The notes under the pieces: model-generated | Told to the model about the DNA's origin: nothing | Databases searched by the model: none | Seen by the model: the letters and a program-made list of their open reading frames with translations, nothing else | Virus record (IMG/VR): IMGVR_UViG_2660238201_000001 | Span: 3,579-67,578 of that record | Reading direction: 5' to 3' (one strand) | DNA length: 64,000 nt | Source of the DNA: a virus | Taxonomy: Duplodnaviria; Heunggongvirae; Uroviricota; Caudoviricetes | Position numbers and translations under genes: made by a program | Part shown: in pieces, positions 5,658 to 61,350 of the stretch | How positions within the stretch are numbered: the stretch's first letter is position 1 | How the letters are laid out: each line of letters starts with the position of its first letter

Positions 5658-5718
5658 GTGTTTTTCCCTCTAAGTAGCGCGTCATTATTCCTACATAAAA
5701 TAAGTATGTAGTTACCTA

Positions 5719-7404
5719 TTATTTTGTGCGTTTGAAGACATACACGCTGACAGTTATCCCCGTGTCATCAAACTCGCCTGTGAACGACTTACCTTTGGCG
5801 TAGACGAAATTATCCAGCATCATCCAGTTCAGTGTTGGTGAGTCCCCCGGCAAAACAGCAACAAGGCGCCCACCGACTTTCAGATGTCCCAGCCCAGCCA
5901 GCGTGTGTTCTTTGTGGCGCCCGAGAGAGTAGGGTGGATTCATGACTATCTTGTCGAAGAGGTATCCTTCATTGTCAGCAGACCACTTCATGAAGTCACA
6001 GCAGACTGTGTTCACGTAGCCTTTTCCAAGAAGGATGTCAGCAAATAGCGGCGCAACCTCAATACAGGTCACGTCCTCAGGATTCGCCTCAATAAACGTA
6101 AGCAGATCTCCGCGACCAGCTTCCGGCTCCAGCAATGTTTCGCCAGATTTCAAGTCAACGACCTTGGCCACGTATTCCGCGATTACGCGAGGGGTAGGGT
6201 AGAACTGATGTGATTTTGCATCCGGGATCAAACCTGTCGCCACAATCGTATTGAGTGTTTGACCGATCTCATACGGGAACTGCCAGTGCTTTTTATCCTG
6301 TACGCCGCCAATGAAGCTCAATGTGCGCTCCAATTCTTCAACCTGCGACTTCTGGAGACTGGAATCAGAGAAGTACCAAACCCCCTTGTCTTTGCTGAAT
6401 CGCCCGTCACGTAAAGTGGATCGAACGGGCTCAGAGATGGTCTTTTGAATGAGGCCAAACTCCTTAGGAGCTCTGGTTTTTGGGGCTGTTCGGCAGGGGG
6501 CTGGTATAGCGGCCGGCATACTGTACGCCAGCACCTCATTAAGCTTCCAGGCAACATCTGGGTGGATCTCAAAATGCACATTACCGTTCTTGAACATTTT
6601 CACGCGCATGAGGTTACCATCCACGTTGATCCAATCACCCGTCTGGCAATCATTTGCCCGGTACGCAGCCGATAGCATCTCTGTTGTGCGGTTAATGGTG
6701 ATGAACTCCTTATGCGCAAAGAAATGCAGCATTACGCGCAGGTCATCGATGTAATCCTCTTTCCGATAGTTCACGCTGACACTATCCCGCCAGAACTCTG
6801 AAATGCAGCTGGCGATGATCAGCCGCTCGCTAAAGCCGTTCGTTTTATTGGTCTTGTGCGCAGGGCTCAGCGCCTTAAACAAACCGTACACGCGCTCAGA
6901 GAGATATTTATGCCTGTCATTCAGCAGATTGACCATCGTGGGGATGACCGTCTCTGCTTTGAACTCAGGTACGCCAACGAACTCCTTAACCTTCATCTGG
7001 TAGCCGGTTCTGTCAGTCTTGATGGTTTCCTGCTTGCCTTCTATGAACTGTTCGCGCCATTCATCTCGGCGGGAAGCTGGCATGATCAGCAGAACGTTTG
7101 TCATATCCGTGACCTTCTTCCAGTATTCGGCCCAGATATTCTGCTTCACCCACTCAAGATCGACCTTATCCAGCCAGGATCTGTTGAAACGAGTGCGTTC
7201 GTCATCCGGCCGGTGGTTGAGTCGAAGCAGGCGGTTAATCATATTGTGACGCTCATCGCCATAAACGAAGTCGTGAACCTGGTGCATGAACGCAATCTCT
7301 TTCTCGCACTCGGCCACGATGTCATGGATGACGTTCATCTCTTTGCTGTGGTCGATACCGGTGTTCGAAGCAAAAGACTCAAGGACAGAAAGCGCTGTAC
7401 TCAT
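5719..7404 (-). CDS. DNA adenine methyltransferase (gamma-class, NPPY) with ~350 aa N-terminal domain of unknown function
   Basis: The C-terminal third has motif I LLEPEAGRGDLL followed by motif IV MNPPYS in gamma-class order. A class-2 motif lies upstream at 7417-7465. Confidence 0.65.
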   Translation of the reverse strand: MSTALSVLESFASNTGIDHSKEMNVIHDIVAECEKEIAFMHQVHDFVYGDERHNMINRLLRLNHRPDDERTRFNRSWLDKVDLEWVKQNIWAEYWKKVTDMTNVLLIMPASRRDEWREQFIEGKQETIKTDRTGYQMKVKEFVGVPEFKAETVIPTMVNLLNDRHKYLSERVYGLFKALSPAHKTNKTNGFSERLIIASCISEFWRDSVSVNYRKEDYIDDLRVMLHFFAHKEFITINRTTEMLSAAYRANDCQTGDWINVDGNLMRVKMFKNGNVHFEIHPDVAWKLNEVLAYSMPAAIPAPCRTAPKTRAPKEFGLIQKTISEPVRSTLRDGRFSKDKGVWYFSDSSLQKSQVEELERTLSFIGGVQDKKHWQFPYEIGQTLNTIVATGLIPDAKSHQFYPTPRVIAEYVAKVVDLKSGETLLEPEAGRGDLLTFIEANPEDVTCIEVAPLFADILLGKGYVNTVCCDFMKWSADNEGYLFDKIVMNPPYSLGRHKEHTLAGLGHLKVGGRLVAVLPGDSPTLNWMMLDNFVYAKGKSFTGEFDDTGITVSVYVFKRTK

Positions 7405-7532
7405 AATTTCACCATATAAACAATTTGTTTTCTTGTTGGTTTTATTATCTCAGACAAGAAAAGGCGTAAAAGATCTATACAGAGGGCTACGGAGGAGGGG
7501 AAGGGGGCTCTCGCCCCCTTGCTATTTCAGGT

Positions 7533-8111
7533 TCAGTGGCTGACTTGCTGCATCTTGTGCGGCTGGTCATTTAGATCGTGGCGATGGGCAAGTTCTCGCA
7601 TCATGTCTTCGATACGGCTCTTCGCTTCATCCATATTATCCGCCATCGCACCAAGCAGCTGGCGAATAGCAGCGGGATGTTCATCGCCGGTTAGCTCTGG
7701 CATTTTGAACCCGTTATGGGTTGCCATTAGTTTAAAGGCGGTAATTAACATGCCTAAAGAAGACTTAAGGCTGGCGATCTCCCGCTCTTTGCTTTCAATG
7801 CCGATATTGTCTCCGGAGAGATCTGGCGCCGGCGCGCATTTTGGTTCGCTCATCATGTCCAGAGTTGCCTGCAGTTTATTGGCACGTTCATGCTCTTCCA
7901 CATACGCCCCGCCAAAGTGACGAGCAAGCATCAGGATTTTCATTGGTTCGTCAAATAAGTCCATGACCTGGACGATGGCCATGATGCGTTCCAGCGGATG
8001 AGCGTCACCATGACCAGTTATAGAATCAAGCATCCCTACGAGTTTTTTAGCCCCGACTTCATTAATGATCTTCTTTACTTCAGCGTTAGCGGCGGTGCAT
8101 TTATCACACAT
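7533..8111 (-). CDS. hypothetical protein (192 aa)
   Basis: ORF with a class-2 motif upstream at 8128-8170. Confidence 0.45.
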   Translation of the reverse strand: MCDKCTAANAEVKKIINEVGAKKLVGMLDSITGHGDAHPLERIMAIVQVMDLFDEPMKILMLARHFGGAYVEEHERANKLQATLDMMSEPKCAPAPDLSGDNIGIESKEREIASLKSSLGMLITAFKLMATHNGFKMPELTGDEHPAAIRQLLGAMADNMDEAKSRIEDMMRELAHRHDLNDQPHKMQQVSH

Positions 8112-9119: not shown

Positions 9120-9674
9120 TCAGTCGCAGCAGGAGGAAGATCCGGAGTCGCAGGACAAACTTGAGGAATCGAATCCAACCGCATCCCATCCAGAGTGGCA
9201 GACCGGGGCATGGTGGTGATGCTGGGTGTGCTTTCCGTGATTGGTGCCGGCGTCTGCTGCGAAACCGTTTTGCATGAGTCCGGCATCAGCAACGCCTGAG
9301 TCGACGGTATTGCTACGGCTGCCAGACAAATCGTGATCAGCCCGTAGGCCATTGGAAGTAGTCTTTTTCGTTGAAATTGATCCATCTGAGCTCTCCATGC
9401 GCGTTTGATAGGCTCGCACGCCCCAGGTGTCTCGCAGGATTTTTGCGGTTCGGGTCTTCATCACTTCCCCCATTGCCACACGAGCCCCCAGGTTAGAGAT
9501 GGCCACCGCATGGTCATCCAGACGATGCTCCATTTGACCTACTTTCTCTTCCAGTTCGGACAGGCGTGCAGACACACGGCCGGAGAATAACTCCGCCAGG
9601 ATGAGTCGTAGCGAACGGGGGTGTTTCTTAAGAGAAGAGGAAGGCGTTTGATGTGCCATTTGAAATCCTTTCAA
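9120..9674 (-). CDS. hypothetical protein with His/Cys-rich C-terminus (184 aa)
   Basis: Longest ORF downstream of the motif copy at 9786-9812. The alternative frame 9107..9385 is rejected. Confidence 0.3.
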   Translation of the reverse strand: MKGFQMAHQTPSSSLKKHPRSLRLILAELFSGRVSARLSELEEKVGQMEHRLDDHAVAISNLGARVAMGEVMKTRTAKILRDTWGVRAYQTRMESSDGSISTKKTTSNGLRADHDLSGSRSNTVDSGVADAGLMQNGFAADAGTNHGKHTQHHHHAPVCHSGWDAVGFDSSSLSCDSGSSSCCD

Positions 9675-9816
9675 TGTCAGAAAGAGTTGCGGCTGGAATG
9701 TCCAGCCGCCGTTTTTTGCGTTCCATCCTTGGAACCGTGCCTAACCAGCACGTTGTCATCCTGACGATGGGTAAGATACATGATACAAAATGATAGGTAA
9801 ATACTTACTTATCATT

Positions 9817-10416
9817 TTATACCAAAAAACCAGCATCTTTTTTGTGTGGAGTATCCGCTGCCGCATATGCTGCGATCTTGGCCAGCCTGTCGCATATTTC
9901 GTTTTCTCGATGCCCGGCGTGGCCCTTTACCCAGTTCCACCTGACATTGTGGCGACTGGCGGCTAAATCGAGTCGTTTCCAGAGGTCGACATTCTTAACA
10001 GGCTTCTTGTCAGCAGTGATCCAACCATTTTGTTTCCACCCCTTCATCCAGAGGGTCATACCATTTTTGAGATACTGGCTATCTGAGTGCAGGATCACGT
10101 TGCAGGAGAATTTAAGGCGTTCCAAAGCTATCAGGGCGCCCATCATCTCCATGCGATTGTTTGTGGTGCTGTGGAAGCCGTCGGAAAACTCGCGTTCTTC
10201 GCCGCGGAACTGAAAGACGATGCCATATCCACCGGGCCCGCCTGGGTTTCTGAGACAAGAGCCATCACTGAAAACTTTGACCGTCTTAAACCGGGGATTA
10301 AATTCGACAACTGGCGTTTTGAAGTTTTTGCGGGGGTGTTTTTGATACTGGTGCTGCGCACGGCCGGCTGCCGTTTTTCGTCTGGCGTGTGTGCTTGTCG
10401 TCATCTCTAACTCCAA
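9817..10416 (-). CDS. rnhA: ribonuclease HI
   Basis: The motifs [21 protein letters not shown] and ILHSDSQYL match RNase HI catalytic motifs. The protein has a 44-aa basic N-terminal extension. Confidence 0.8.
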
Positions 10417-10976
10417 AGCGTGCGCCGCCGCCCGTTTTTCCTCGCGCGTGTGCGCACGCGTGTTTATACATATTTATTTTCAATGAATTACTTCCCAGAT
10501 CGGGTTTATTTTTACCTGAACTGAGCGAACGAAGTGAGTGAAGTTCACCTCGAACGAAGTGAGAGGTTGTCTTTTCAGGTAATACTCTCCCAGGGAGGTG
10601 AGTAAAAAATCCTCACCAACCTGGTCGTTTCATAACCTGAAAAGTTATGACCTAAGTCTACTGCCAGCTTAGGCTTGGGAAGTTATGGATGACAGCACCC
10701 CAGAACCGAGATCTTCCCACACTTCATGAAGGGGAGTACTGGATTCAACCTCTCAAAATACCCAGACTCGACAATCATAAAGTGACCCTTCTCTCTGCCC
10801 ACTTTGGTTCCCCCTTCCCCAGACCCCAAAAGGGCTGGTTCTGCGCTGGTTGTGGGCTTTTTTAAGTCTGGTGCCAGTGACGCTATCCTCCACCCACCAG
10901 ACCGAGATTTCGACTCAGGTCGAAATCGACATCATTCTACAACCACTATGATACATCGTAAACGGTAACTACTTAC

Positions 10977-11234
10977 TTACTTTCCTGACTGATCATTTTG
11001 TCTACCATGAAGCTGAACTTGCAGAGCAAAAACCTCGTTGATTAGCTCGCCAAGGAGCTGCTCAATCAGGTCTTTGTGTTCGCCAGTGTGCAAACATTTC
11101 AGTGACCACTCGTAAAGACTGAATGCCTTTTCACGATCCTTCATGAGTTCGCGAGCGTTAGCCAAAAAATCGCTCTCAACGAGCGCTACAACGTTGGTCG
11201 GGTATGCCATGATGGTTTCCTTACTTGTCTTCAC
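10977..11234 (-). CDS. hypothetical protein (85 aa)
   Basis: ORF downstream of the repeated element at 11321-11385. Confidence 0.4.
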   Translation of the reverse strand: MKTSKETIMAYPTNVVALVESDFLANARELMKDREKAFSLYEWSLKCLHTGEHKDLIEQLLGELINEVFALQVQLHGRQNDQSGK

Positions 11235-11407
11235 AAAAACGATTCTATAGCGTCTGGAAAGGGGTTCCAGAGTGGTCTGGGCGTCTTGTTTCGGTCTGGG
11301 AGTGGTCTGGAATCGACAAGGAAAAGCCTGCTTTCGTATATGTTTATAATTAGTACTTAGTTATTTATATATACGAAAGCAGGTTATGAAACGCTCCCAG
11401 ACTCGGA

Positions 11408-12013
11408 TTAAGCAGCCTGTTTCCGTGGTCTTTTTTTCCTGATCACTTTGGCAGGATCGTAACCACCCAGACTTTTCATCACCGTCAGCGGGACTTTATT
11501 CATGAAGTGACCAGCGTTCTGACAGAATCCGCGAAAGACCACCAGCATACTTCCGCCAGGGTTGATATTGACCTCAACCAAACCCAAAGTGACGTCTGGT
11601 TCCATGAACGCTACGCGGCCGCCAGACAGAACTACCGTCTGGTTTGCGCACTCGGTGGCGCGCTCATACCACATCGTGTCGAGCGATTGCGGAATGAGCA
11701 TAACGGTGGTTACACCACGCGCTTGCTCTCGGATAGCCGCCTCTATCCAGGGGGTTATTTTGGAGTAGGGCGGGTTGAGAAAGGCCACCGTACCAGGATC
11801 ACCCCAGCTGGACTTAAGAGCATCTCGTTCCACACCTATGTAGCTCGGAAGAAGCGCGTTTTCTTTGTTACAGGCGACATCAACATCAAACGTAATGCCG
11901 AGATATCGCTGAATGGCGACAAACAACCATTTCGGTGTGCGCCAAAGGTCTCGAAGAGAGGCATCTCGCTCTCGCTTTTTGATTTTTTCGGCTGCTATCA
12001 TTTTACAATCCAA
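11408..12013 (-). CDS. phage-type DNA N6-adenine methyltransferase (Dam family)
   Basis: LWRTPKWLF near the N-terminus and FLNPPYS match the small phage Dam methyltransferase family. Confidence 0.7.
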   Translation of the reverse strand: MDCKMIAAEKIKKRERDASLRDLWRTPKWLFVAIQRYLGITFDVDVACNKENALLPSYIGVERDALKSSWGDPGTVAFLNPPYSKITPWIEAAIREQARGVTTVMLIPQSLDTMWYERATECANQTVVLSGGRVAFMEPDVTLGLVEVNINPGGSMLVVFRGFCQNAGHFMNKVPLTVMKSLGGYDPAKVIRKKRPRKQAA

Positions 12014-12070
12014 TAGGTAAGTACTTACCTATTTTTTCATGTCATTTTACGAATGGCAAATAAAGAAAAA

Positions 12071-13702: not shown

Positions 13703-13711
13703 AACTACTCC

Positions 13712-15725: not shown

Positions 15726-15726
15726 A

Positions 15727-16830
15727 TCACACCGCCACTGGAGCCTTAATCCATGGAAGTGGTTCGTAGCCGAAGATCTGCACGCCGTCCCATTTGAAGT
15801 CATCCAGCTCTTCCCATTCGTGCGGGAAGACGACGATGGGGTCGGACGACTCCGGATGTTCGCGAGCCAGTAGCTCTTCAACCTGCTCCAAGTGGTTGTT
15901 GTAAATGTGAACATCAAAGCCGAAATGGACGAAGGCGCCAGCCATGTGACCCGTAATCTTCGCAATGAACTGCGTGAGGATGCCGTAACCGGCAATATTG
16001 AATGGCATACCAAGGAAAGTATCGACACTCCGCTGCACCAGGCAGGAGTTCAGGATACGTTTAGGGATACCAAGCTCATCCAGCATTGGCTCAGAGATAC
16101 TGCCTCGCTGCTCTATCAGGCAAAGCATCTGGGTATAGATCGATTCATAGCCATGCCGGTTATGCTGGATGCCAATATCGGTGGCCATAGACAAACGGGT
16201 CTGGAAATCGAGCTCACGACTCCATACGGATAACACAAAGTGGCAAGGTGGAAGCTTCATATCCTCCAGCTCACCAACATTCCAGGCATTAAGCAGGATG
16301 CGGCGATCGGTCGGGTTGTTGCGCAACTGATCAACCATACGTTGTAACTGATCGATTTCACGGGTGATAACGACGCGGTCTTCATTCAGCCCAATGTAAC
16401 CTTCAACGCGATAACCACGTTCCATGAAGATGTCCTCCTTAAGGCGATACTCACTGTAAGGGACAATCCTGGTGTCCTCCCATCGGCGCCATTGCTTGCC
16501 ATATACAGGCCCTAAATCGCCATTATCGTCGGCCCAAGCATCCCAGATCTTCACACCATGCTCTTTAAGGAACCCAATGTTGCCTGAACCTTGTAAATAC
16601 CATTCAAGCTCAACCAGTAGCGGTTTAAGGTTTACCTGTTTTGAAGAAATGAGCGGAACAGCCCCGCCGGTAAGCATGTAGTAGGAAGGCACATAAGAAA
16701 CGCCAAGCGTACCGGTGCCGGTGCGATCTTCGGAAGGAACGCCGGTATCAACAACGGTCTGAATGACACGGCCATAAGAGCTCGAAGCCAGCTGACCGTT
16801 ACTGAATTCTCGATTAAGTAAAAAAGACAA
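15727..16830 (-). CDS. thyA: thymidylate synthase (ThyA) with two ~40-50 aa insertions
   Basis: DRTGTGTL, IWDAWADDNGDLGPVYGKQWRRW, DRRILLNAWNVGEL, LPPCH, DTFLGMPFNIAGYG and C-terminal IKAPVAV are near-identical to the bacterial ThyA core. The start is a TTG with a GAGGT SD. Extra segments lie at about aa 96-140 and 196-245. Confidence 0.85.
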   Translation of the reverse strand: MSFLLNREFSNGQLASSSYGRVIQTVVDTGVPSEDRTGTGTLGVSYVPSYYMLTGGAVPLISSKQVNLKPLLVELEWYLQGSGNIGFLKEHGVKIWDAWADDNGDLGPVYGKQWRRWEDTRIVPYSEYRLKEDIFMERGYRVEGYIGLNEDRVVITREIDQLQRMVDQLRNNPTDRRILLNAWNVGELEDMKLPPCHFVLSVWSRELDFQTRLSMATDIGIQHNRHGYESIYTQMLCLIEQRGSISEPMLDELGIPKRILNSCLVQRSVDTFLGMPFNIAGYGILTQFIAKITGHMAGAFVHFGFDVHIYNNHLEQVEELLAREHPESSDPIVVFPHEWEELDDFKWDGVQIFGYEPLPWIKAPVAV

Positions 16831-17023
16831 GATGACCTCAAATAATAAGTAAGTACATACCTATCATTTTAAACACAGAGAAGACATCCAGGCTAGAAAT
16901 TAAGTAAAAAAATGGTGGCCACGGGGCCACCAACGCTCAACTTTATCGAAAATAAAGATTGATAAGGATAGAAATGGACAATAGATCACACGTCCATTTC
17001 AATATATATTGATAAGTTAGTAC

Positions 17024-17899
17024 TTACAAGCTGTTTTTAACCACTTCATACAGCGAAGATGCCTGTGCTTGCTCAAGGAAACGAGACAGATAGACATCGC
17101 TATATGTCGGCGATTTAAGGATTTTTCCATCAGACAGGCGATAGCCGATCATCATGTCAGTGCCGTCAGCATGGCGGAATCCGAGATCATTCTTATCATA
17201 TTTACAGTTCTCAACGGCAAGACGACGCGCTTCAGCATCCGCCGGCCACAGCTTTGTCATATTAGAACGGTGGATCTCCGCCACCAGCTCCACGACGTCG
17301 ACGCCAAGGAATTCAGCCAGGCGATACACCATCATGCACGCCACATAGATTTTGTTCATCACGCGGCGCAGATCCTGAATCAGCTCAGCATCACCTACCT
17401 TGTTATGTTCAAGTTTATCGGCCAGCGCGGCCAACATAAGCGCAGCTTCTTCTGCTTCATTGAAGGGGATGGCCATATCGTCGAAGACGGTATTTCCAGG
17501 CACCATAATGGTATGAATAAAGCGATCGACGCTTTGCTCCTGAGTGTAATAGCTCATGCCAGTTGATAGCCCACCTTTGATGGCTACCATCGTCCCGACA
17601 CCCACATACAGGAAGTCAGCCATTGCATCCAGCAATCCCTGCATATCCCCCTTTTTCGCTGCAGGCAGCCCTTCTTCTACCGCCTCTTCATGGATCAGCT
17701 TAGCGCGCAGGCGCAGCAGCTCCGGAGTGGGCATTACACGACGCGGGTGCTGAAACAGCTCGTGGAACTGGTCAACCATCTTGTAAATACTCTCTGTCGC
17801 TTCTCCAAAACCGGGGTTCAGCTCATATGGCTCTGGTTTGAAGCCCACCAGTTTATCGGTGGCCAGCTTGAGATGGTCGGTCAGTTTCGTTAATTTCAT
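17024..17899 (-). CDS. putative all-alpha NTP pyrophosphohydrolase (MazG/dimeric dUTPase-like)
   Basis: The segment EEAVEEG...LLDAMADFLYVGVG resembles a MazG-type EExxE...D helix. It lies between nrdB and thyA. Confidence 0.4.
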   Translation of the reverse strand: MKLTKLTDHLKLATDKLVGFKPEPYELNPGFGEATESIYKMVDQFHELFQHPRRVMPTPELLRLRAKLIHEEAVEEGLPAAKKGDMQGLLDAMADFLYVGVGTMVAIKGGLSTGMSYYTQEQSVDRFIHTIMVPGNTVFDDMAIPFNEAEEAALMLAALADKLEHNKVGDAELIQDLRRVMNKIYVACMMVYRLAEFLGVDVVELVAEIHRSNMTKLWPADAEARRLAVENCKYDKNDLGFRHADGTDMMIGYRLSDGKILKSPTYSDVYLSRFLEQAQASSLYEVVKNSL

Positions 17900-21592: not shown

Positions 21593-21628
21593 ATAGTATT
21601 AAATAAGTACTTACCTATCAATTGAGGA

Positions 21629-40573: not shown

Positions 40574-40594
40574 GTGTTTTTCCCGTCATTAGCT

Positions 40595-45069: not shown

Positions 45070-45165
45070 GTGTTTTTCCTTACTTGTTGTCGTTTCTGGG
45101 CTCTATTCTATACGAATGTATCAGGCTTTATAGTAACTAGTTACTTATTTTATAGGGCGTAAGAT

Positions 45166-47797: not shown

Positions 47798-48052
47798 CAG
47801 GTTTCATTTGGAGGTGATGGTACTACCTATTGATATAAAAGTTAATAAAAATGTATCGTAATGTCTTAAACAAAAACAATCAAAAAAATCAACAGAAGTA
47901 CCGGATTTTACTAATTTATCCCTTATTTCGCGTGATTTATGTGCGATAATTGCCTACAAATAGCCGGATGTAAGACTTTACAATAACAACCGTTGCTGTA
48001 ATATCGGTAAGTACTTACCATACAATAAGATCACGCGAGGATAGTAACTACA

Positions 48053-50301: not shown

Positions 50302-50712
50302 CTACGGGTTTGTTAATTTCTGGAAGGCTGCCGCGTATTTGGCGATGTCGCTCATTTTGACTGGATCACTGGCTGTTTTGTGTGCCTCTTTCGGGAAGAT
50401 GGCCAGCAGACTATACACGTCCTGAAACTTGGCGTGCTGGGTATAAACGAGGGCGCGGTCGCTTGTACAGTTGAACCTGTTTCGGTGACTATTTCGTTCT
50501 TGCTTGGTGAATAAGAGATGAACGTGGTAAACACGAGAGGAAACTACAGAACCAGGTTCGGTATAGGGGCCATCTTTGCCAAAAACGGCCGGATAAAAGC
50601 CGTTCTTAAAACTCACAAAGTCAGCAAGTAAGGAGGTCTTCAGATCTGGCATTACTCTGAAGACCGGCTCCAAAAATTGGGCGTAACTATCACTGTTCCA
50701 TGTGACTTTCAT
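50302..50712 (-). CDS. hypothetical protein (136 aa)
   Basis: ORF. Confidence 0.4.
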   Translation of the reverse strand: MKVTWNSDSYAQFLEPVFRVMPDLKTSLLADFVSFKNGFYPAVFGKDGPYTEPGSVVSSRVYHVHLLFTKQERNSHRNRFNCTSDRALVYTQHAKFQDVYSLLAIFPKEAHKTASDPVKMSDIAKYAAAFQKLTNP

Positions 50713-50721: not shown

Positions 50722-51339
50722 TTAATGGAAGGAGAAGTTTGCGAAGACGTCCTCATCAATGAGGCCTGTCTGCGATTCGATAACTTCTACCTCGTTAAAG
50801 CACTGATTTAGAATCATCAGGAGGTCAGAAACCGCCAGACGGTACTCAGTGATAGCATCACTCAAACGTTTCAGGTACGGATGTGGCAGTTCGGCGTCAC
50901 GGATGAACTTGTTAACGAAGCCTTCTAAACCGCGTATGGACAGGTCAACGTTCTTCAAGTCCTCGTAACGGCTTTCACCGAAAGTATCGCGGATCTGTTC
51001 CGCACTGTAACCTGAAATGTTATGGGTCAACTGAACGTGTTTCGCCGTCAGCTCTGCGAGCCTTTGTTCAATATCCGCAAGCTGAGCTGCGGTATCGCTT
51101 TCAGCTACCGGAATTCCTTCTGTTTGCGGCAGTCTGAACTCGTTAGAATCTGCAAAACCTGGCCTCGTCGACCTTGTGATGCCGCCGATACGGGGACGCA
51201 TCTTAAATTTTGTGTGTACACGCTTCGGGAACGCTTTCGGAGTGCTATTTGCATTCGAAAAGCGTGAAGCGTTAGAAGTCACGGTAGCAAGAGCATTGCT
51301 AATGACATTCATATCTTCCAGGCAATTTTCTAAATGCAT
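50722..51339 (-). CDS. hypothetical protein (205 aa)
   Basis: ORF. Confidence 0.45.
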   Translation of the reverse strand: MHLENCLEDMNVISNALATVTSNASRFSNANSTPKAFPKRVHTKFKMRPRIGGITRSTRPGFADSNEFRLPQTEGIPVAESDTAAQLADIEQRLAELTAKHVQLTHNISGYSAEQIRDTFGESRYEDLKNVDLSIRGLEGFVNKFIRDAELPHPYLKRLSDAITEYRLAVSDLLMILNQCFNEVEVIESQTGLIDEDVFANFSFH

Positions 51340-52863: not shown

Positions 52864-52943
52864 GTGAGTAACCAGACGAACTATACCTAAAAGTTAACAC
52901 AAAAGTAAGTAAGTAGTTACATAACGACAAGGGCGTTTATGCA

Positions 52944-53121: not shown

Positions 53122-53208
53122 TGGCGGAGGATAATGGAATCGAACCATCATCGCTTTCGCAATGGGACGGTTTTCAAGACCGCTTGGGCGCCATGCCCTC
53201 TATCCTCC
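53122..53208 (-). tRNA. tRNA-Ser (anticodon TGA), type II long variable arm
   Basis: Manual fold: acceptor GGAGGAT/ATCCTCC, anticodon stem GCGGT/ACCGT with loop CTTGAAA, T-arm GGTTCGATTCC and an encoded CCA. Confidence 0.7.
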
Positions 53209-53356: not shown

Positions 53357-53431
53357 TGGCGATGGTGGGTGGATTCGAACCACCGACCAGTTGATTAACA
53401 GTCAACCGCTCTACCACTGAGCTACACCATC
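53357..53431 (-). tRNA. tRNA-Asn (anticodon GTT)
   Basis: Manual fold: acceptor GATGGTG/CACCATC, D-arm TAGCTCAGTGGTAGAGCG, anticodon stem-loop GTTGA-CTGTTAA-TCAAC, T-arm GGTTCGAATCC and CCA. Confidence 0.8.
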
Positions 53432-54174
53432 TAAAGTTGACACCGTCAGCCTCTGTCGATTTACGGACTTGTGGGGCCGCATCGCCGATTCACCGGTGTC
53501 GTTCGCAGCAGTCCTACCGCTTTCTGCCACCGTATTCACCAAACGCTTACAAGCCAAGATCTTCAAATACTCTCCGAGGGTTGAGGAGGGCTTTCTTTCA
53601 GATCTAATTGGATGTATGGAATCATTTAATCGTTGTGGCCACGGGGCAGTGACAACAATGGCTATAACCAGAAGGATAATGAATCCGTGGCCACAACGTT
53701 GAGACCACTGGGACGGATTAATGTACTTGGCCCTACATGTCTGCCGGTTCTGCCTCTGTGATGCAAAAACCAGTGGTCTCAACGTTGCGTGCTGGCTCAC
53801 CTAACCAGCCGGGTTACGTCGCCATTTTTAACCCAAAACTAAACGACATAAGTAACAGAAATGACGTAACAGGATAGACGGTCGGGCCTTTGGGAGCCGG
53901 GATGTGTTGGACATAAAACCCAACCGCCCATTCTGTTACCTCATCGGTAAGGGCACTGGTTAACCAGATGCCCTACCTGCGTTTTGCAATCACACTCGCT
54001 TAGTGTGTCCCATTTCGGTGACGAGGCTGGAAACTGACCTCGCTGGTGTTTGGCTTTTTAGGCTACTGCCAGATACTGATTGTCGTTTGCAGTTATCTTT
54101 AAACGTTCAAACAGTCGCGTCTCAACGAAAACAAGCCAATCATAGTTGTATCAAAATAATAAGTAAATACTTAC

Positions 54175-54477
54175 CTATATTTTCATGCATTCTTTTGCTC
54201 CTTTTTTCATCAGCTTTGACTTATCATCCTGCGTCCGTTGGATTGTGGCCGTGAATCTTTTTGCCTTTATGCAAAGGACTTCATCTTCCTTCAGCTCGCC
54301 GTACCGCTGTTCAAGCAGAGAACCAAGGCACCAAAGTGTGTCATCGATACGCTTGCGATTGGCGAATCTTAAAAGCAGTAGCTTTACAAGAGACTGGCCA
54401 ACCGTGAAAGCTACTGCGACACCAGAGGCCACAAAGTACAAGCCTACCCACCAGTCTAAGGAGGTTAGATTGCTCAT
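54175..54477 (-). CDS. membrane protein (100 aa)
   Basis: N-terminal transmembrane helix. It is ATGA-coupled to an upstream 49-codon transmembrane ORF at about 54477-54626. Confidence 0.4.
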   Translation of the reverse strand: MSNLTSLDWWVGLYFVASGVAVAFTVGQSLVKLLLLRFANRKRIDDTLWCLGSLLEQRYGELKEDEVLCIKAKRFTATIQRTQDDKSKLMKKGAKECMKI

Positions 54478-55417: not shown

Positions 55418-56233
55418 TTACCAGGTGGCCCAGCCGGTCATCTTGTCACTTGCGGCTTCGTATCGATATGGGGTTAGCAGGTCGTTTGCGGCATGAACGG
55501 CGTGGGATTTGGCTTCCTGAATCAGCATAGGCATTTCATTGGCCAAACGACTGATCTTACTTGCGTATTGTGCCAACACCCCATCACAGACGCGGCCAGC
55601 CTCAACGATCACGTTGATTAAGTCCAGATCACTACGACACAAGTCGCAGATACGCCCATAGTCCAGCTCACGAACACGCGCTATAGCCTTGTTGTAATCT
55701 CCGGAGACAATCATTTCCAACAAGCCTGGTGGTGCTACCAGATCTACATGGCGCCTTTCAACATCGGGAGAAGTCATGACGCTGACGAAAGCCTCTCCTA
55801 CTGTCTCGCATTTGCTTTCTACGGCTCTTAGAGTCACGTCCACGCTCTTCTCAAGCGTTTCTCTGCTTTCCATCTGGTAGCAGTTTGAGAAGATGATTTT
55901 GTCGTCATACCAGGCGCCAAAACGCGCAACTGGCCCAATGCCGGTCTCAAGCGACGGGACGATGAACGCAACCAGAGCTACACGCTTTTGAACAGTACCG
56001 GGCATTTCAGGCGTCTTTGCGTACCACACTAACACCGACGTATGTGTCGCCCCTTCTTTGAGAGGAATGCAGGATAGCGCATTCGATATATGCTCTGATG
56101 CCGTGTTGAATGAGGCATCGATGATGCTCTCCAGTTCTCCCTCGCCAAGCTCTACGCCTGACTTCTTGATCATCTCTAAAACTGCCTGTTCGATATCTTC
56201 TTTCATGTGATGTCCTCCACAACCAGAGAGCAA
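55418..56233 (-). CDS. hypothetical protein (271 aa)
   Basis: ORF with a palindromic motif upstream at 56243-56266. Confidence 0.45.
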   Translation of the reverse strand: MLSGCGGHHMKEDIEQAVLEMIKKSGVELGEGELESIIDASFNTASEHISNALSCIPLKEGATHTSVLVWYAKTPEMPGTVQKRVALVAFIVPSLETGIGPVARFGAWYDDKIIFSNCYQMESRETLEKSVDVTLRAVESKCETVGEAFVSVMTSPDVERRHVDLVAPPGLLEMIVSGDYNKAIARVRELDYGRICDLCRSDLDLINVIVEAGRVCDGVLAQYASKISRLANEMPMLIQEAKSHAVHAANDLLTPYRYEAASDKMTGWATW

Positions 56234-56453
56234 ATTATTACATTAAAATATGTAAGTAGCTACTTATCAAAGAGAGGCGGAGAGGTATACGATGGCAACA
56301 GACCAACACAACAATGCATAGGCCCCAAGAGCGTTTGACTCGGAACGTAGCAACTATGAAGACTTAACCTTACTAAAGCTGTTCGTACTCTGTTAATATA
56401 TTGAAGCAAAAAACAAAGGTTATGCAATTTCCTTTTCAGCAAAGAATCTAACT

Positions 56454-57665
56454 TTGCAGAAAACAAATAATAACACGTATTGTTTAATAGGGGATTTTAT
56501 GAAATTTTTTGATGAGTCTTATGAACATGAAGTTAATTCCATCACGAGTCATATAACTAGTACTTTCCCCTTGTCAAATGATTTATCTAATAATCCGTTT
56601 GCTGCCGACGATTCAATTTTGTCTGATGTAATTATTTCACTGTCATGGCGCTATTTTATAGACTTGTATTTTAAGCATAGAGATTTACTCAACGAACACA
56701 CACCATTTAATCAAGAAAAGATAGAGGGTGGTAATCTCCCTAGCTTATCAGAATTAAAAAGTGATAAACATTTCTTTTTATTTAAAATACTCAGATTAAT
56801 ATATGAATACAATTTTTGGACAGTGAGCGACACAAGACAACCACTTTTTTTAGATTTTTCCATTTTAGAAAGATTAGATAGACTGTCCCCAAAGGATAAC
56901 ATTCCAATTTCGTTCACCTGGATAGAACAAACAATGCCTGCAGCATTGGTTAAACACTTATTGCGGTCAGATAAATTTTCTCTTTTTAAAAACATTGCAA
57001 CTAATGTAGGTGGCTTTGAGGAAGAAATTTCGAAGCAAATAAAAAATGGTATCAGCACGGCGCAAAATGAGGCAGAACAGTTAAAAGAAAAAATTGAGAC
57101 TCTCGTTAACAATGCCGATTCGTCCATAAAGTCTCTTCAAGAATATGATGAAAAACTCAAACAGTATAAAAGTGAATATAACTTCGTTCTGCTGAGCAAA
57201 GCTTTCTCAAATCTTTTGAAAACCAAAAAAGCAGAATATGTCACAAATCACAGAAGTGTAATTATTTTTTCTTCATGGTTGATTGCCACGCCTTTATTTG
57301 CTTTATTGAATCATATCTATAATTTCTTCCCCGTGGAATTTAATTTAAATGCATTATTCTATTTCCTGCCGATATTATCATTAGAATTGTTATTTTTTTA
57401 TTTTATGCGTCTATATTATATTGAGGGCAAGGCCATCAAGGCTCAGATACTTCAAATAGAACAGCGACTAAGTCTATGTGAGTTTATACATGACTACGTG
57501 GAGACCAAAAATAACTCCGGTGCTGAAAAGGAATCATGGTCGCTGTTTGAGAAGTTAATTTTCAGCCCAATACAGGTTACTTCTGAAAACATACCGTCTT
57601 TACTGGATGGCGCATCATCTATTGCAGAGTTAGCTGGGAAAGTATTGTCCAAAGATTCTAAATAA
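56454..57665 (+). CDS. AT-rich foreign gene: soluble N-domain + C-terminal multi-TM anchor (probable true start MKFF at 56499)
   Basis: Its GC content is far below the neighbours. It is on the plus strand against minus-strand polarity. Hydrophobic helices WLIATPLFALL and FYFLPILSLELLFFYF are present. Confidence 0.5.
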   Translation: MQKTNNNTYCLIGDFMKFFDESYEHEVNSITSHITSTFPLSNDLSNNPFAADDSILSDVIISLSWRYFIDLYFKHRDLLNEHTPFNQEKIEGGNLPSLSELKSDKHFFLFKILRLIYEYNFWTVSDTRQPLFLDFSILERLDRLSPKDNIPISFTWIEQTMPAALVKHLLRSDKFSLFKNIATNVGGFEEEISKQIKNGISTAQNEAEQLKEKIETLVNNADSSIKSLQEYDEKLKQYKSEYNFVLLSKAFSNLLKTKKAEYVTNHRSVIIFSSWLIATPLFALLNHIYNFFPVEFNLNALFYFLPILSLELLFFYFMRLYYIEGKAIKAQILQIEQRLSLCEFIHDYVETKNNSGAEKESWSLFEKLIFSPIQVTSENIPSLLDGASSIAELAGKVLSKDSK

Positions 57666-57704
57666 CCATGTTGGCTGCCCTCTTTTGGCAGCCAACCAAA
57701 CACC

Positions 57705-58829
57705 TCACGAATTAAACACTTTTATACCGAGAACCTTGCTCTGCAGCTCCAGCTGCTTAGAGTAGGGTTTTGCGCGATAGTAGGCTTTGAGAATTTGTTC
57801 CTGGGTTGCTTCCCCGGGATCTAGCCCTTCTTCTCCAAGACAGGATATTTTTACATTTAACCCTATACTGGTTAATCGTCTGGCGGCCGCCATTGTGTTG
57901 CGGATCGCTTGCTTCTCGCTATCCCACATCATGATGACGTTTCGCAGACCATCAGCCTTTAACGACAGAAATGCGCCCAGTTGGTCTTCTGCGTCTACAG
58001 TCGTGTTTCCGGACAGATGCATCCCGAACGTGCCAATGGGCTCTACGTAGTCCCGGAGCGTCTCTTCGTCGAATATGGCGCGCTTAACCCCCATGACATC
58101 GAAAGCCCCCTCACAGACGACGACTGTTTGCTTTCCAACTGCGTTATGTCCGTTATAGAGAAACCTCCCGGATGCCGGCAGCTGCATTGGAAAGAGATAT
58201 CGGCGTTCTGCTGCGCCGGTGACGTCACGCCCCTGGAATGTCTTCATCACCCCATTCAGATCGTAAATCGGTATCAGGATGCGCATATCGAATGCCTGCC
58301 CTTTAACCTGATCGGTATATGGGTCGACATAAGCATGTTTTCCCTCGACGCAGTAACGCAGGTCAAAATATTTGGCCAGCTCCGGGGTAATGTTCCGCTC
58401 AACAAGATAGTCCGGCAGCCGACCGTCAATTGGCAGTTCATAATGCCGCGGTAAAGCCACCGGGCCTTCAAGTTCCACAGCACTGGCCAGCACAACCTCT
58501 TCTTTTTTTGGCGCCCAACCTTGAGACAGGAGTGCGTTATGTACGTACTCCTCAAAGGCACGACGAGACTTACCGCTGTAGTGTTTGAGGAAAACCAGCT
58601 TATTAAATTGAATTTCTTCTGGGTGATCGCCGGCGAAGCATTTCCCGACGTTGTTGGTCAGGTTGAAATAGACCTTCCAGTTTGTGCTTCCACATACCGG
58701 ACATTCTTTGATATTCACTTCGCGGCCGCGGGCGCTTACACCGCCGCGACGATAGATGATGCCTTCCATATCCAGCCATTGTTCGAAATCCAGCTCGGAC
58801 AGTAACTCTTTGAGGTCACTCATTGTCAT
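57705..58829 (-). CDS. DNA primase (zinc-ribbon + TOPRIM)
   Basis: CPVCGS...C..H zinc ribbon and TOPRIM motif VVCEGAFDVMG with downstream acidic residues. Confidence 0.75.
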   Translation of the reverse strand: MTMSDLKELLSELDFEQWLDMEGIIYRRGGVSARGREVNIKECPVCGSTNWKVYFNLTNNVGKCFAGDHPEEIQFNKLVFLKHYSGKSRRAFEEYVHNALLSQGWAPKKEEVVLASAVELEGPVALPRHYELPIDGRLPDYLVERNITPELAKYFDLRYCVEGKHAYVDPYTDQVKGQAFDMRILIPIYDLNGVMKTFQGRDVTGAAERRYLFPMQLPASGRFLYNGHNAVGKQTVVVCEGAFDVMGVKRAIFDEETLRDYVEPIGTFGMHLSGNTTVDAEDQLGAFLSLKADGLRNVIMMWDSEKQAIRNTMAAARRLTSIGLNVKISCLGEEGLDPGEATQEQILKAYYRAKPYSKQLELQSKVLGIKVFNS

Positions 58830-60316: not shown

Positions 60317-60380
60317 GTGTTTGTTATCCTTTGGTGCTTAAACAAGTTGTTTTCTAATCGTAAAAATATGGAACAGGCGA

Positions 60381-61106
60381 TCAACACAGTCGCCGTGCTT
60401 CTTCCAGTTCTTCCGGGTAATGGGCATAGATAACGCGCTCAGGCACCAGCTCCATCAACCAGACAGCAGAGAAGATGGTGCGGATACGCTTATCACGGGT
60501 GATGTGCTTCAAACGCTCCAGAACCCATTCAAAGTAACGTTCCTGAATTGGGTCATGCTGCATGTCTCCTAAGTGCTTAAAACTCACTACAGAGTCATCC
60601 AGACGCGTTCCCGCACGATTGGCGAGTTTGCTTTCGAAGATCTCAATCAGTTCTGGCTGCCAGAGATGCTGAGGACGAGGTAATTTATCCCAGAGCCGGC
60701 GCGCAGCTGCAGAAAGAACAGTTGATATAAAATAGTCATAAGAACAGCAATACCGATCTGCAAACTGGCGAGCTTTCCAGAGAGACGTTTTGTTCACCGC
60801 CGAAAGCTCTTGGTAAGGCAGGCGTTTCAGACCAGTGCTGAATGGCGCCGTCTCGAAATGCTCGCGGCCATGAGACAGCATGATCTGTGAGTATGCGCGC
60901 TTATAGGCTTCGGTGAACAGGCAGGTTGCCATCAGCGGGTGCATGTCGCGATAGTCAAACCACTTTGTATCAAAGAGCTCAGCCTCCCCCTGGCATCGTG
61001 AAAGACCGATGTTTTCCGCAACCCACTTGTCCATGGCAGCCGCGTCCCACTCTGTCATAAAGTCGTACTGGCCGTTGTTTATGGTGTCAAAAAAGATCTG
61101 GCTCAT
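60381..61106 (-). CDS. hypothetical protein (241 aa)
   Basis: ORF with a class-2 motif at 60338-60362 and palindromic motif at 61118-61140 upstream. Confidence 0.45.
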   Translation of the reverse strand: MSQIFFDTINNGQYDFMTEWDAAAMDKWVAENIGLSRCQGEAELFDTKWFDYRDMHPLMATCLFTEAYKRAYSQIMLSHGREHFETAPFSTGLKRLPYQELSAVNKTSLWKARQFADRYCCSYDYFISTVLSAAARRLWDKLPRPQHLWQPELIEIFESKLANRAGTRLDDSVVSFKHLGDMQHDPIQERYFEWVLERLKHITRDKRIRTIFSAVWLMELVPERVIYAHYPEELEEARRLC

Positions 61107-61350
61107 GCTCTCACCGATAGGTAACTACTTACTTACTATTTAACAGATCATAGCGACTGGAGACTGTTTTTGGAAGTAGAAGCAGAAGGGAATGTGTCTG
61201 GGAAGAATGCAAAATACCTACTTACGTATAAATAATAAGTTACTTAGTTTTATATACGAAAGCAGGTTCTGAACTTATAACCAATTAGTTTCTAAGAAAT
61301 GCTATAATGCAAAAAGTGTTAACTGTATCTAAACCTCAACATAAGGCGCC

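Follow-up and report, generated by a model that had tools for sequence, protein, structure and literature searches.

A dispersed palindromic dyad in an SSU5-like phage-plasmid of Klebsiella and its possible role as a multi-copy operator

What does a short palindrome do when it recurs before gene after gene of a phage-plasmid? The window analysed here, a 64,000-nucleotide stretch of DNA, belongs to an SSU5-like phage-plasmid of Klebsiella with 98–99% identity to phage pJN2-26. The dyad spans 12–20 bp, with core GTAAGTACTTAC and arms ATAG/CTAT, and is also given as GGTAAGTACTTACC; the palindromic core of the ~25-bp motif described in the first-pass annotation stands, and the fuller form is rather a longer near-palindrome, AAAATGATAGGTAAGTACTTACCTATCATTTT. 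Allowing at most one mismatch, the core has 14 matches in the window versus 0.02 expected from shuffles, and scanning with an orientation-neutral 20-bp position weight matrix (PWM), with the cut-off set by shuffle maxima, returned 21 sites where chance would give about none. The repeat is therefore real, and no published description of it was found in the literature. Eighteen of the 21 coordinates first listed were recovered by the PWM, the listed positions lying 0–12 bp left of the core; those at 11348, 55355 and 61228 fall below threshold (11348 and 61228 are centres of a separate 56-bp palindrome), and PWM copies at 10965, 29389 (borderline) and 37896 had been missed. The sites, with PWM scores in brackets, are as follows.

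5704–5715, minus strand, dyad GTATGTAGTTAC (28.6), abutting the DUF4942 methylase stop codon, 46 nt upstream of ORF 4929–5657; SSU5 ortholog at 84182
9797–9808, minus strand, dyad, a nearly perfect 32-bp palindrome (29.4), 137 nt upstream of ORF 9120–9659; conserved in SSU5 at 79908
10965–10976, minus strand, dyad (21.4) abutting the stop of ORF 10977–11210, followed by a 560-nt ORF-free gap and then RNase HI
12017–12028, minus strand, perfect-core dyad (32.3), 15 nt upstream of DNA methylase ORF 11408–12001
16849–16860, minus strand, dyad (30.2) upstream of thyA (15727–16830), 52 nt past terminator 16932–16913
17016–17027, minus strand, dyad (16.9) overlapping the NTP pyrophosphohydrolase stop codon, upstream of the same terminator
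21603–21614, minus strand, dyad (27.3), 49 nt upstream of nrdA
26295–26306, minus strand, dyad (30.2), 119 nt upstream of an SbcD-like exonuclease operon (start 26175), with TGnCATAAT 11 nt downstream, conserved in pJN2-26 and SSU5
29389–29400, no strand assigned, borderline dyad-like copy (12.3, exactly the threshold) in the convergent gap between repB and ORF 29449–29661; it may be a chance match
30178–30189, minus strand, dyad (25.4) inside ORF 29661–30233 of the pJN2-26 annotation; SSU5 counterpart at 58078, intergenic between SSU5_065 and SSU5_066
30350–30361, minus strand, dyad (17.4) with a strong Shine-Dalgarno AAGGAG 7 nt later
32654–32665, minus strand, dyad (27.4) after terminator 32705–32685, ~40 nt upstream of a small membrane-protein ORF
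37427–37438, minus strand, dyad (20.3), 90 nt upstream of a gp32-like SSB gene (36329–37336)
37896–37907, minus strand, weak dyad (17.6), 8 nt upstream of ORF 37456–37887
45133–45144, minus strand, dyad GTAACTAGTTAC, a symmetric double variant (21.6), 63 nt upstream of a CobS-like ATPase gene
46575–46586, minus strand, dyad (28.5) in a vWA/CobT-like gene, translated within the acidic linker as ...SISKYIPNS...; context ...DKSISKYIPNSDEV...; kept in pJN2-26 (91936) and SSU5 (43665)
48007–48018, plus strand, perfect-core dyad (20.3), 34 nt upstream of the start codon of a helix-turn-helix (HTH) gene and 227 nt from divergent ORF 47567–47779
52909–52920, minus strand, dyad (25.3) past a terminator-like hairpin, 60 nt upstream of phoH
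54163–54174, minus strand, dyad (29.4) abutting the stop of ORF 54175–54477, 730 nt upstream of tRNA-Asn and tRNA-Ser genes
56252–56263, minus strand, dyad (24.7) in a divergent gap, 45 nt upstream of ORF 55418–56206 and 235 nt from plus-strand ORF 56499–57665
61121–61132, minus strand, dyad (28.7), 14 nt upstream of ORF 60381–61106, which precedes a DnaB-like helicase gene; conserved in SSU5 and pMB7868_2

Although ~85% of the window is coding, 19 of the 21 sites are non-coding (binomial p ~1e-14). The copy reported inside a coding region is genuine (46575), and a second, at 30178, lies within an annotated ORF. A placement mostly 10–50 bp upstream of start codons describes 11 sites, where the core stands 8–63 nt from the start; at the remaining sites the distance is 90–137 nt or more. 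Use on both strands likewise holds in part, as 48007 is the only dyad followed by a plus-strand gene and two further dyads, 56252 and 61121, occupy divergent gaps; the dyads at 48007 and 56252 may be used divergently. About twenty lytic-cycle genes are preceded by dyads in this element, and likewise in distant relatives, and copies are also present in the late/structural module; among the window ORFs and PWM sites, none was seen to precede repB, parA or the integrase gene directly.

Whole-genome counts are similar across the family, with 26 dyads in pJN2-26, 26 in SSU5, 22 in pMB7868_2, 33 in pABTJ2 and 29 in RHEph10. Corresponding intergenic positions carry the identical dyad in Salmonella phage SSU5, E. 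coli phage Cyrano and plasmid pMB7868_2, the enteric members having the form GTAAG-TA-CTTAC, and recognisable variants occur in ~30 copies each in Acinetobacter pABTJ2 (AGTAAG-CG-CTTACT) and Rhizobium phage RHEph10 (AGTMAAT-ATTKACT), where single sites combine differing half-site variants. At orthologous positions the half-sites are conserved above the flanking intergenic DNA, while the centre varies (TA, CG and CA at one site in different genomes), and many copies are unable to fold as RNA. These features together fit a dimeric DNA-binding protein, and what persists across this old family looks like the signature of such a protein on double-stranded DNA, as the suggestion of a dimeric-protein operator had anticipated.

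Nine of the 46 sigma-70-like promoter calls overlap dyads, and all nine are directed at the adjacent gene. The dyad lies within the spacer at 21603 (TTGATA-17-TACTAT, 21621–21593), 37427 (TAGATA-17-TATTAT, 37448–37420), 17016 (overlapping the promoter-like TTGTAA-17-TATATT at 17029–17001) and 32654, where it fills the spacer of TTGAAA-17-TATCAT (10/12 matches, 32675–32647), the best promoter call of its region. At three sites it follows the -10 by 2 nt: 12017 (TTGCCA-17-(TG)AAAAAT, 12059–12031), 45133 (TTTAGA-17-TAAAAT, 45175–45147) and 48007 (TTTACA-16-TAATAT, 47977–48004). At 30178 (TTTACA-17-TAGTAT, 30210–30182) and 54163 (TTTACT-17-TATGAT, 54167–54139) it covers a promoter hexamer. Such a variable register suggests operator-like behaviour and not a fixed promoter box. 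Conservation points the same way at the methylase promoter, where the -35, -10 and dyad at 12017 are conserved in SSU5 and pMB7868_2 and the spacer is divergent, and at the HTH promoter, whose hexamers and dyad are identical in Cyrano and whose spacer differs. Promoter calls overall are, however, no commoner than in shuffles, and since the AT-rich palindromic arms yield -10-like hexamers on both sides, part of the overlap may stem from the motif itself.

The proposal that the motif marks a promoter class with a TATTAT-like -10 is thus borne out only in part. A -10-like hexamer, TAT(C/T)AT, does stand at +2 to +7 after the core and several complete sigma-70-like promoters are present; the register is variable and no -35 hexamer stands at a constant offset from the dyad at the sites compared. 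As -10-like hexamers flank the dyad symmetrically, a TATTAT-like -10 cannot be set apart from the palindrome's own arm. Nor do copies usually follow a terminator, an arrangement seen at a few sites only (16849, 32654 and 52909). The reverse order, dyad and then terminator hairpin, occurs at 17016, after the capsid gene in relatives, and at 21603, where the described promoter-then-hairpin arrangement before nrdA exists (hairpin at 21592–21571) and is conserved entire in SSU5. Overall the earlier interpretation is partly supported.

The protein that we regard as the best candidate binder, which the first-pass annotation named as an example, is encoded within the window:

48053–48433, plus strand, XRE-family HTH protein of 126 aa, candidate dyad-binding repressor

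It matches PHROG transcriptional regulators, and its predicted fold resembles XRE/cI-type dimeric repressors (lambda cI, P22 c2 and the C proteins of restriction-modification systems). It shares 56% identity with its Cyrano ortholog, the 'putative repressor' CYRAN_45, which is transcribed at 10 times the local background in the lysogen (PMC9928086). Homologs are present in pMB7868_2, pABTJ2 and RHEph10, with a recognition helix conserved in every motif-bearing lineage, and this type of HTH is nearly universal in the family (913 PLSDB plasmids versus 930 with the helicase). The fold, the orthology to the Cyrano repressor and the dyad at the gene's own predicted start together single it out; it is the most likely binder of the dyad, and repression would proceed through that binding. 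Two observations complicate the assignment. HTH alleles have diverged far more than the backbone (100%, ~66%, ~57% and ~41% identity, where the helicase keeps at least 90%), and still the dyad is identical in pJN2-26, SSU5 and Cyrano, which is unexpected of an immunity repressor unless specificity resides elsewhere. SSU5, a lytic isolate, is without the integrase-HTH module and yet has 26 dyads; a recent deletion would explain this, and it is equally expected of a promoter element. The absence of the module from a lytic isolate also counts in favour of a repressor, as does the SSU5 junction, which none of 822 related plasmids matched in one piece. Other DNA-binding candidates are two conserved ParB_N proteins and an 88-aa protein upstream of terS with a weak LexA-type winged-helix match.

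We propose, giving the idea about an even chance of being right, that the dyad is a multi-copy palindromic operator in lytic-gene promoters, most likely bound by the XRE repressor of 48053–48433. A phage-encoded dimer would read the half-sites GGTAAG/CTTACC and leave the central 2–4 bp free to vary. Bound to a dyad that occupies a promoter spacer, coincides with a transcription start or covers a hexamer, this dimer would block RNA polymerase. The genes so controlled would be those for replication, nucleotide metabolism, tRNAs, structural proteins and lysis. A single repressor would silence ~25 dispersed lytic transcription units during plasmid maintenance and autoregulate its own gene through the dyad at 48007, and its loss or inactivation would free all promoters together. 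If this is true, one phage repressor shuts the whole lytic programme while the element persists as a plasmid. Copies in 30-bp gaps of the late operon, or immediately ahead of terminators, have no obvious role as promoter operators and count against the proposal.

The main rival, which we consider unlikely though deserving of serious attention, holds the dyad to be a phage-specific promoter element that replaces the -35 and is read by a putative phage activator or RNAP-binding factor, with TAT(C/T)AT as the -10 1 bp downstream. It is modelled on the P1 late promoters (Lpa-activated, with AAGTnACTT as a -22 box and a -10), whose annotated form AAGT(G/T)ACTT-N4-TAnnAT is close to the window's AAGTACTT-ACY-TATYAT. 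A peak of -10-like hexamers at a fixed offset right after the core (+1 in pJN2-26, at 3.2 bits, and in SSU5; 0 in pABTJ2, with its frequent TATAAT hexamers) speaks for it, as do the missing constant -35, the dyads before tRNA genes and most lytic operons, some of them at positions that follow an opposite-strand gene and so need a promoter, and the lytic growth of SSU5 with 26 dyads and no HTH gene. So do the asymmetries of the motif: the upstream arm of the pABTJ2 sites varies far less than the downstream arm, which drifts towards TATAAT, and RHEph10 and pMB7868_2 show an orientation bias in their half-sites. Its reader, on the other hand, is elusive, as phmmer against all ORFs of five genomes found no Lpa homolog (PF25716), the enteric members yielded no sigma homolog, in contrast to pABTJ2 and RHEph10, each of which has one, and no candidate reader protein was found. 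The register relative to the best promoter hexamers differs among sites, the RHEph10 sites are without a downstream -10, and early and late genes are both preceded by the motif, unlike the P1 late class. In several copies, such as 50553 and 60783 of RHEph10, 30350 of the window and that of the portal gene, the Shine-Dalgarno begins 0–8 nt after the motif, so that a start 13–15 nt downstream would delete it, and the dyad at 48007 lies at the predicted start of the HTH gene's own conserved promoter.

An operator with a different reader is improbable in our estimation: one of the two ParB_N proteins, encoded upstream of the terminase genes, would bind the dyad for KorB-like silencing and/or DNA organisation. 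ParB and KorB sites are typically dispersed palindromes of 13–16 bp; both proteins are conserved in pJN2-26, SSU5, pMB7868_2 and pABTJ2, all four have a dyad in the divergent gap immediately before this operon, and SSU5 retains both the proteins and the dyads. ParB_N is nevertheless their sole domain match, with no DNA-binding HTH detected, nothing links them to transcription, and partition is served by a separate ParA-type locus with no adjoining dyad. More improbable still, and hardly to be expected, is a function at the RNA level, in which a 5'-leader or intercistronic hairpin would serve as processing site, stabiliser, terminator/antiterminator target or translational-repressor site. Some copies of the extended palindrome form a strong fold (9797, at -17.8 kcal/mol, is the most stable among those tested) and many copies lie just upstream of Shine-Dalgarno sequences, but energies range from -1.5 to -17.8 kcal/mol and three of eight copies tested fold no better than shuffles. 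The gene-sense excess of G.T over A.C at symmetric core positions (46 versus 13, four genomes) also speaks for it but could instead reflect strand-specific mutation bias or promoter constraints, and the core pairs also contain 54 transversion mismatches. Both half-site sequences are conserved beyond mere complementarity while the centre varies, the form most frequent in RHEph10 carries an A.G mismatch and a stem of only 5 bp, and start-codon spacing runs from 8 to >130 nt and differs between orthologs.

Among known systems, the stoperators of mycobacteriophage L5 and other Cluster A phages are reportedly (Brown et al. 1997) short sites in intergenic gaps of early and late lytic operons, through which one repressor (gp71) is said to silence the whole genome, with one further site at a true promoter. 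Both systems have ~25–35 copies of a short site in early and late operons; the L5 sites are reportedly 13-bp, asymmetric, strictly oriented with transcription and monomer-bound, in a phage that integrates into the chromosome, whereas the window has palindromes whose orientation is weakly biased at most. The KorB operators (OB) of IncP plasmid RK2, a dozen or more dispersed palindromes that mediate global repression, resemble the dyad in lying at variable distances from promoters, but KorB is a ParB-family protein with an HTH and the ParB_N proteins here show none. The Lpa- and SspA-dependent P1 late promoters share a palindromic AAGT..ACTT box a few bp upstream of a -10, without a -35, in ~10–25 occurrences in a phage-plasmid; the window box is 8–12 bp rather than 9 bp, its gap to the -10 is 2–3 bp rather than 4 bp, no Lpa homolog was found, and the motif is neither restricted to late genes nor constant in register. 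The operators of 434, P22 c2 and lambda cI and the C boxes are likewise palindromes, of 14–20 bp, in which the outer half-sites are conserved and the centre, which is not contacted, varies; they are bound by dimers of XRE-fold HTH domains, the fold predicted for the 48053 protein. They number 2–6 at one or two loci, in contrast to 20–30 genome-wide, and the 48053 protein is without a LexA-like cleavage domain. In layout the P1 C1 operators are alike: both elements are plasmid prophages of ~100 kb in which one repressor serves (here the candidate 48053 protein would serve) many operators scattered genome-wide, overlapping lytic-gene promoters with one at a regulator's own locus, as the P1 annotation shows for P1. 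P1 differs in its asymmetric 17-bp 'monovalent' sites, in a C1 protein unrelated to the small XRE candidate, and in having a separate Lpa late-promoter class where the window has one motif for early and late genes. Between P1 and P7 the operators are constant while immunity differs.

The dyad, a dispersed palindrome with half-sites GGTAAG/CTTACC, was searched for with a 20-bp, symmetrised and orientation-neutral PWM, the threshold being set at the 90th percentile of shuffle maxima. Twenty-one sites were found in the window, in agreement with the earlier count of at least 20 copies, and 19 of them lie in non-coding DNA even though about 85% of the window is coding. Allowing up to one mismatch, the 12-mer GTAAGTACTTAC occurs 14 times against 0.02 expected, and the copies extend into a near-palindrome of about 32 bp, AAAATGATAGGTAAGTACTTACCTATCATTTT. 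The first-pass annotation had listed 21 positions, of which 18 were recovered; the other three fall below the PWM threshold, and two of these are the centres of a different, 56-bp palindrome. The copy described as lying within the vWA/CobT-like gene is indeed there and is translated as SISKYIPNS. The placement of copies 10–50 bp before start codons proved too narrow, the observed distance being 8–137 nt, or longer if the copy has no ORF after it. A terminator in front of the copy, described as usual, is present at only a few sites, and the reverse order of motif and then hairpin also occurs, before nrdA in the window and 3' of the capsid gene in relatives.

The window holds the part of an SSU5-type phage-plasmid devoted to replication, nucleotide metabolism, recombination, integrase and partition functions, as judged by transfer of the pJN2-26 annotation, and nearly all of its genes are on the minus strand. 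A 7-kb piece of it shares 98–99% identity with Klebsiella phage-plasmids such as pJN2-26 and about 79% with SSU5 (Salmonella). Features of the window are as follows.

10405–10964 and 53432–54162: two long stretches directly 3' of dyad copies, with no convincing ORF
11327–11383 and 61217–61266: two copies of a 56-bp near-perfect palindrome
32710–35055 (region): RecA-like ORF of 781 aa, against 357 aa in pJN2-26
39404–43656 (region): DNA polymerase III alpha gene, matching just residues 1–776 of the pJN2-26 protein
40595–41296 and 39404–40573: ORFs after the polymerase gene, with no match among pJN2-26 proteins
48053–48433, plus strand: gene of an XRE-family HTH protein
50302–50712: ORF matching the YafO toxin family (Pfam E-value 7.7e-22)
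50722–51339: ORF upstream of the YafO-family ORF
53122–53208, minus strand: tRNA-Ser
53357–53431, minus strand: tRNA-Asn
56000–58000: AT-rich block, GC 0.38 against about 0.49 elsewhere
56499–57665, plus strand: ORF in the AT-rich block, 55% identical to its pJN2-26 counterpart, where its neighbours are 95–99% identical

The differences in the RecA-like and DNA polymerase III alpha genes suggest inteins or homing-endonuclease insertions, the block with ORF 56499–57665 looks like an exchanged accessory gene, and ORFs 50302–50712 and 50722–51339 are probably a toxin-antitoxin pair. The stretch 53432–54162 runs into the two tRNA genes, tRNA-Asn being the one match that Rfam reported for the window at gathering threshold. 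Beyond the window, pJN2-26 5022–5552 gives a full-length match to Pfam Flag1_repress (FljA family, phase-1 flagellin repressors; E-value 4e-86), a gene that is unexpected in a Klebsiella phage-plasmid. The 56-bp palindrome is built from CCTGCTTTCGTATATA, a dyad-like centre (CTAAGTACTAAT or similar) and TATATACGAAAGCAGG; pJN2-26 has a third one immediately before terS (38533–38587), and the SSU5 record starts inside it. The role of this palindrome may lie in packaging, termination or high-affinity regulation. A translation-initiation context, AAGGAGAAACACATG, is strongly conserved at many gene starts of the window (for example 30331, 32613, 45069, 26175 and 37336), and the 10-mer ATGTGTTTTC occurs 11 times in pMB7868_2.

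The dyad observation was confirmed and extended to the whole superfamily. The complete pJN2-26 genome contains 26–28 copies, several of them in the structural/lysis module (in the terL-portal gap, 3' of the capsid gene, and ahead of holin and tail genes), and there are 26 in SSU5, 22 in pMB7868_2 and at least 13 in 50 kb of the E. coli phage Cyrano. Copies occupy orthologous positions in pJN2-26, SSU5 and pMB7868_2 (helicase identity 70%) and the same gene junctions in Cyrano and in pABTJ2 from Acinetobacter (helicase identity 38%), the terL-portal gap and the 3' side of the capsid gene among them. Since copy positions are conserved between relatives, a selfish short palindromic repeat (REP or MITE-like) is excluded. 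The motif takes the form ATTATTA-GTAAGCGCTTAC-TATAAT in the 33 copies of pABTJ2 and TCAGT(A/C)AATATT(G/T)A(C/T)TGA in 29 copies in the Rhizobium phage RHEph10 (60% G+C), where they lie in short gaps and often abut Shine-Dalgarno sequences; in the neighbourhood of its HTH, CobT/CobS and DNA polymerase genes this phage has the gene order seen here. The common denominator of all variants is AGTAA-N4-6-TTACT. Literature searches on the exact motifs and on the regulation of SSU5 or pHCM2 turned up no published description of any of these forms. The 10-mers AACAAGTTGT and AACAACTTGT occur 11 times each in pMB7868_2 and a related one, AAACAAGTTGTTT, lies upstream of parA in pJN2-26; a role as partition or iteron-like repeats is possible.

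Pairwise alignments show the half-sites to be more conserved than the adjoining intergenic DNA, the two being conserved about equally, and the centre of the dyad varies freely, reading TA, CG or CA at one and the same site in different genomes. In pMB7868_2 and RHEph10 there is no more than a partial orientation bias. Half-sites kept in sequence around a free centre are the signature that a dimeric protein on double-stranded DNA would leave. It is very improbable that the feature shared by the copies is instead an RNA hairpin, whether a terminator, a processing site or a leader structure. RNA structure was rejected as the common denominator on the predicted folds, which range from -1.5 to -17.8 kcal/mol and in three of eight cases are no better than shuffles, on the 54 transversion mismatches among the core pairs, which speak against RNA pairing, and on the commonest RHEph10 form, which mixes two half-site variants and would contain an A.G mismatch if folded as RNA. 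An Rfam scan returned one tRNA as its sole match.

The relation of the dyad to promoters is close and variable in register. A -10-like TAT(C/T)AT stands at +2 to +7 after the core, and in pABTJ2 TATAAT follows immediately; the highest mean -10 log-odds is reached at +1 past the core in pJN2-26 and in SSU5 (3.2 and 2.3 bits, respectively) and at 0 in pABTJ2 (2.8 bits). Equally good -10-like hexamers are present on the opposite side of the dyad. A -10 occurs at a fixed motif position, as in a canonical sigma-70 class, but most copies lack the -35 located 16–18 bp upstream that such a class would have. No -35 at constant distance was detected, the best full-promoter offsets being scattered and sense not differing from antisense, and a fixed -35 or -10 register up- or downstream of the dyad was rejected for want of a directional signal. 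A simple promoter scanner gave no overall excess of sigma-70-like sites. Among the 46 calls that it made from 5 to 62 kb, nine overlap a dyad and all nine are aimed at the adjacent gene; these dyads make up 9 of the 21 window copies and fall into three different registers. At 21603, 32654 and 37427 (first coordinates of the dyad cores) the dyad fills a 17-bp promoter spacer, at 17016 it overlaps the -35 and spacer, at 12017, 45133 and 48007 it starts 2 nt after the -10, and at 30178 and 54163 it covers a promoter hexamer. Two of the promoters are supported by comparison: that of the methylase gene, in which TTGNCA, (T/A)AAAAT and the dyad are kept in pJN2-26, SSU5 and pMB7868_2 around a diverged spacer, and that of the HTH gene, which reads TTTACA-16-TAATAT-CG-dyad in the window and Cyrano with differing spacers. 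A variable register points to an operator, since operators show this and a fixed activator box does not. The best reading of the dyad is an operator in sigma-70-type lytic promoters. The first-pass annotation had proposed a promoter class, a dimeric-protein operator and the HTH product as binder; the analysis partly supports this proposal, placing the operator within sigma-70-type promoters and giving up the new promoter class.

A rather unlikely alternative is that the dyad is an activator-dependent promoter box. Late promoters in the annotated P1 record, AAGT(G/T)ACTT-N4-TAnnAT, come near to the AAGTACTT-ACY-TATYAT found here, the arms of the pABTJ2 motif are asymmetric with the downstream arm tending towards TATAAT, and SSU5 retains all its copies without an HTH gene. 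Set against this, the motif precedes early genes as well, dyads standing before nrdA, thyA, the SSB gene, a helicase-region gene, phoH and the tRNA genes in addition to the portal, tail and holin genes, and at several copies the ribosome-binding site starts 0–8 nt after the motif, so that a transcription start 13–15 nt downstream would remove it. Nor was any Lpa or sigma homolog found in the enteric members to serve such a box. The P1 activator Lpa (Pfam PF25716 / phrog_1704) was rejected as reader of the dyad for lack of a homolog: with phmmer, none of all the ORFs of 45 aa or longer in the window, pJN2-26, SSU5, pMB7868_2 and pABTJ2 did better than an E-value of 0.68, and among 42 proteins scanned against Pfam or PHROG none matched the family. 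A phage sigma factor was likewise rejected, tblastn and a homolog HMM having returned nothing in the window, pJN2-26, SSU5 and pMB7868_2. A sigma70_r2-like protein is encoded between the CobS-like ATPase and DNA polymerase genes in pABTJ2 (18154–18819) and RHEph10 (24607–25242); at this position the window has only a 67-aa ORF (43631–43834), with no sigma homolog elsewhere.

Centres and arms differ by lineage across hosts, which argues that the reader is encoded by the phage, and to our knowledge none of the consensus sequences of Fur, TrpR, RcsB, CpxR, NarL, DnaA, IHF and LexA fits the dyad. The DNA-binding candidates common to pABTJ2 and pJN2-26 are the HTH protein, two ParB_N proteins and the small terminase. 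A reader of ParB/KorB type is improbable. The two ParB_N proteins are encoded beyond the window, and no HTH domain was detected in them. Pfam scans of 33 window and pJN2-26 proteins and PHROG scans of seven window proteins revealed no further clear transcription factor; an 88-aa protein encoded upstream of terS has a weak LexA-type winged-helix match.

In PHROG the HTH protein finds its matches among transcriptional regulators, and its predicted fold (pLDDT 71.5) resembles XRE repressors, lambda cI and P22 c2 among them, and R-M controller proteins. The Cyrano ortholog, with 56% identity, carries the annotation of putative repressor and is listed in PMC9928086 as transcribed 10 times above local background in LF82 lysogens. 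The recognition helix N-x-N-x-[LIV]-[ST]-x-I-x-x-G is conserved in the homologs from pMB7868_2, pABTJ2 and Rhizobium phages, the homologs in pMB7868_2, pABTJ2 and RHEph10 are preceded by dyad-like sites, and in the window and Cyrano this candidate repressor gene has a dyad at its own promoter. The gene occurs in 913 plasmid records and the helicase in 930. SSU5, which was isolated as a lytic phage, is without the integrase-HTH module: at about 42600–42760 of its genome it is missing the block that begins with phoH and includes the integrase and HTH genes, which in the window, pJN2-26, Cyrano and pMB7868_2 separates the tRNA genes from the vWA gene. The SSU5 junction was matched in one piece by none of the 822 related plasmids, and the deletion is therefore specific to the SSU5 lineage. 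The uniqueness of this junction weakens the argument that the HTH protein is not the reader because SSU5 does without it, and SSU5 may be a virulent phage derived by deletion from a phage-plasmid.

As an operator embedded in sigma-70-type lytic promoters, the dyad would act through a bound protein that occludes RNA polymerase in every observed register. As expected of dispersed operators, many copies lie in short non-coding gaps of lytic operons, including the structural module. We consider the chances evenly balanced that a repressor with a genome-wide operator set, read by the candidate HTH protein, accounts for the dyads. More tentatively, and with some doubt, the SSU5 superfamily, from Rhizobium phages to Acinetobacter and enterobacterial resistance plasmids, might share an ancient grammar of one small XRE protein and 25–35 sites in essentially every lytic promoter, in which occupancy of a single operator type would decide between plasmid and phage life; the sites would have been kept unchanged through the loss of a phage sigma factor from the enteric branch and through strong divergence of the repressor.

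SSU5-type phage-plasmids, very common across Klebsiella, E. coli, Enterobacter, Salmonella and Acinetobacter, account for more than 900 records in the plasmid collection searched; two reports describe clinically important resistance genes on some of them (PMC9600943, PMC12217456). A single recognisable operator/promoter signature would provide a map of the lytic regulon and a named candidate master regulator, and, in the form of dyad mutations, repressor deletion or decoy sites, direct means of inducing these elements or of locking them. The elements are abundant in clinical Enterobacterales and Acinetobacter. Conserved from alpha- to gammaproteobacterial hosts, the half-sites would serve as a marker for recognising family members, and the dyad set as a case study of how a many-site regulon constrains repressor/operator evolution.

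Among known systems, P1 late promoters have the box AAGTnACTT 4 bp upstream of the -10 and no -35; the pattern here, AAGTACTT + ACY + TATYAT, has a box shorter by 1 bp and a 3-bp gap. P1 late promoters are restricted to late (morphogenesis, lysis) operons, which the dyad is not. The dyads form a genome-wide set, as do the P1 (C1) operators and the L5 stoperators, but differ from these in symmetry, the L5 and P1 sites being asymmetric and in a single orientation with respect to transcription and the dyads being palindromic.
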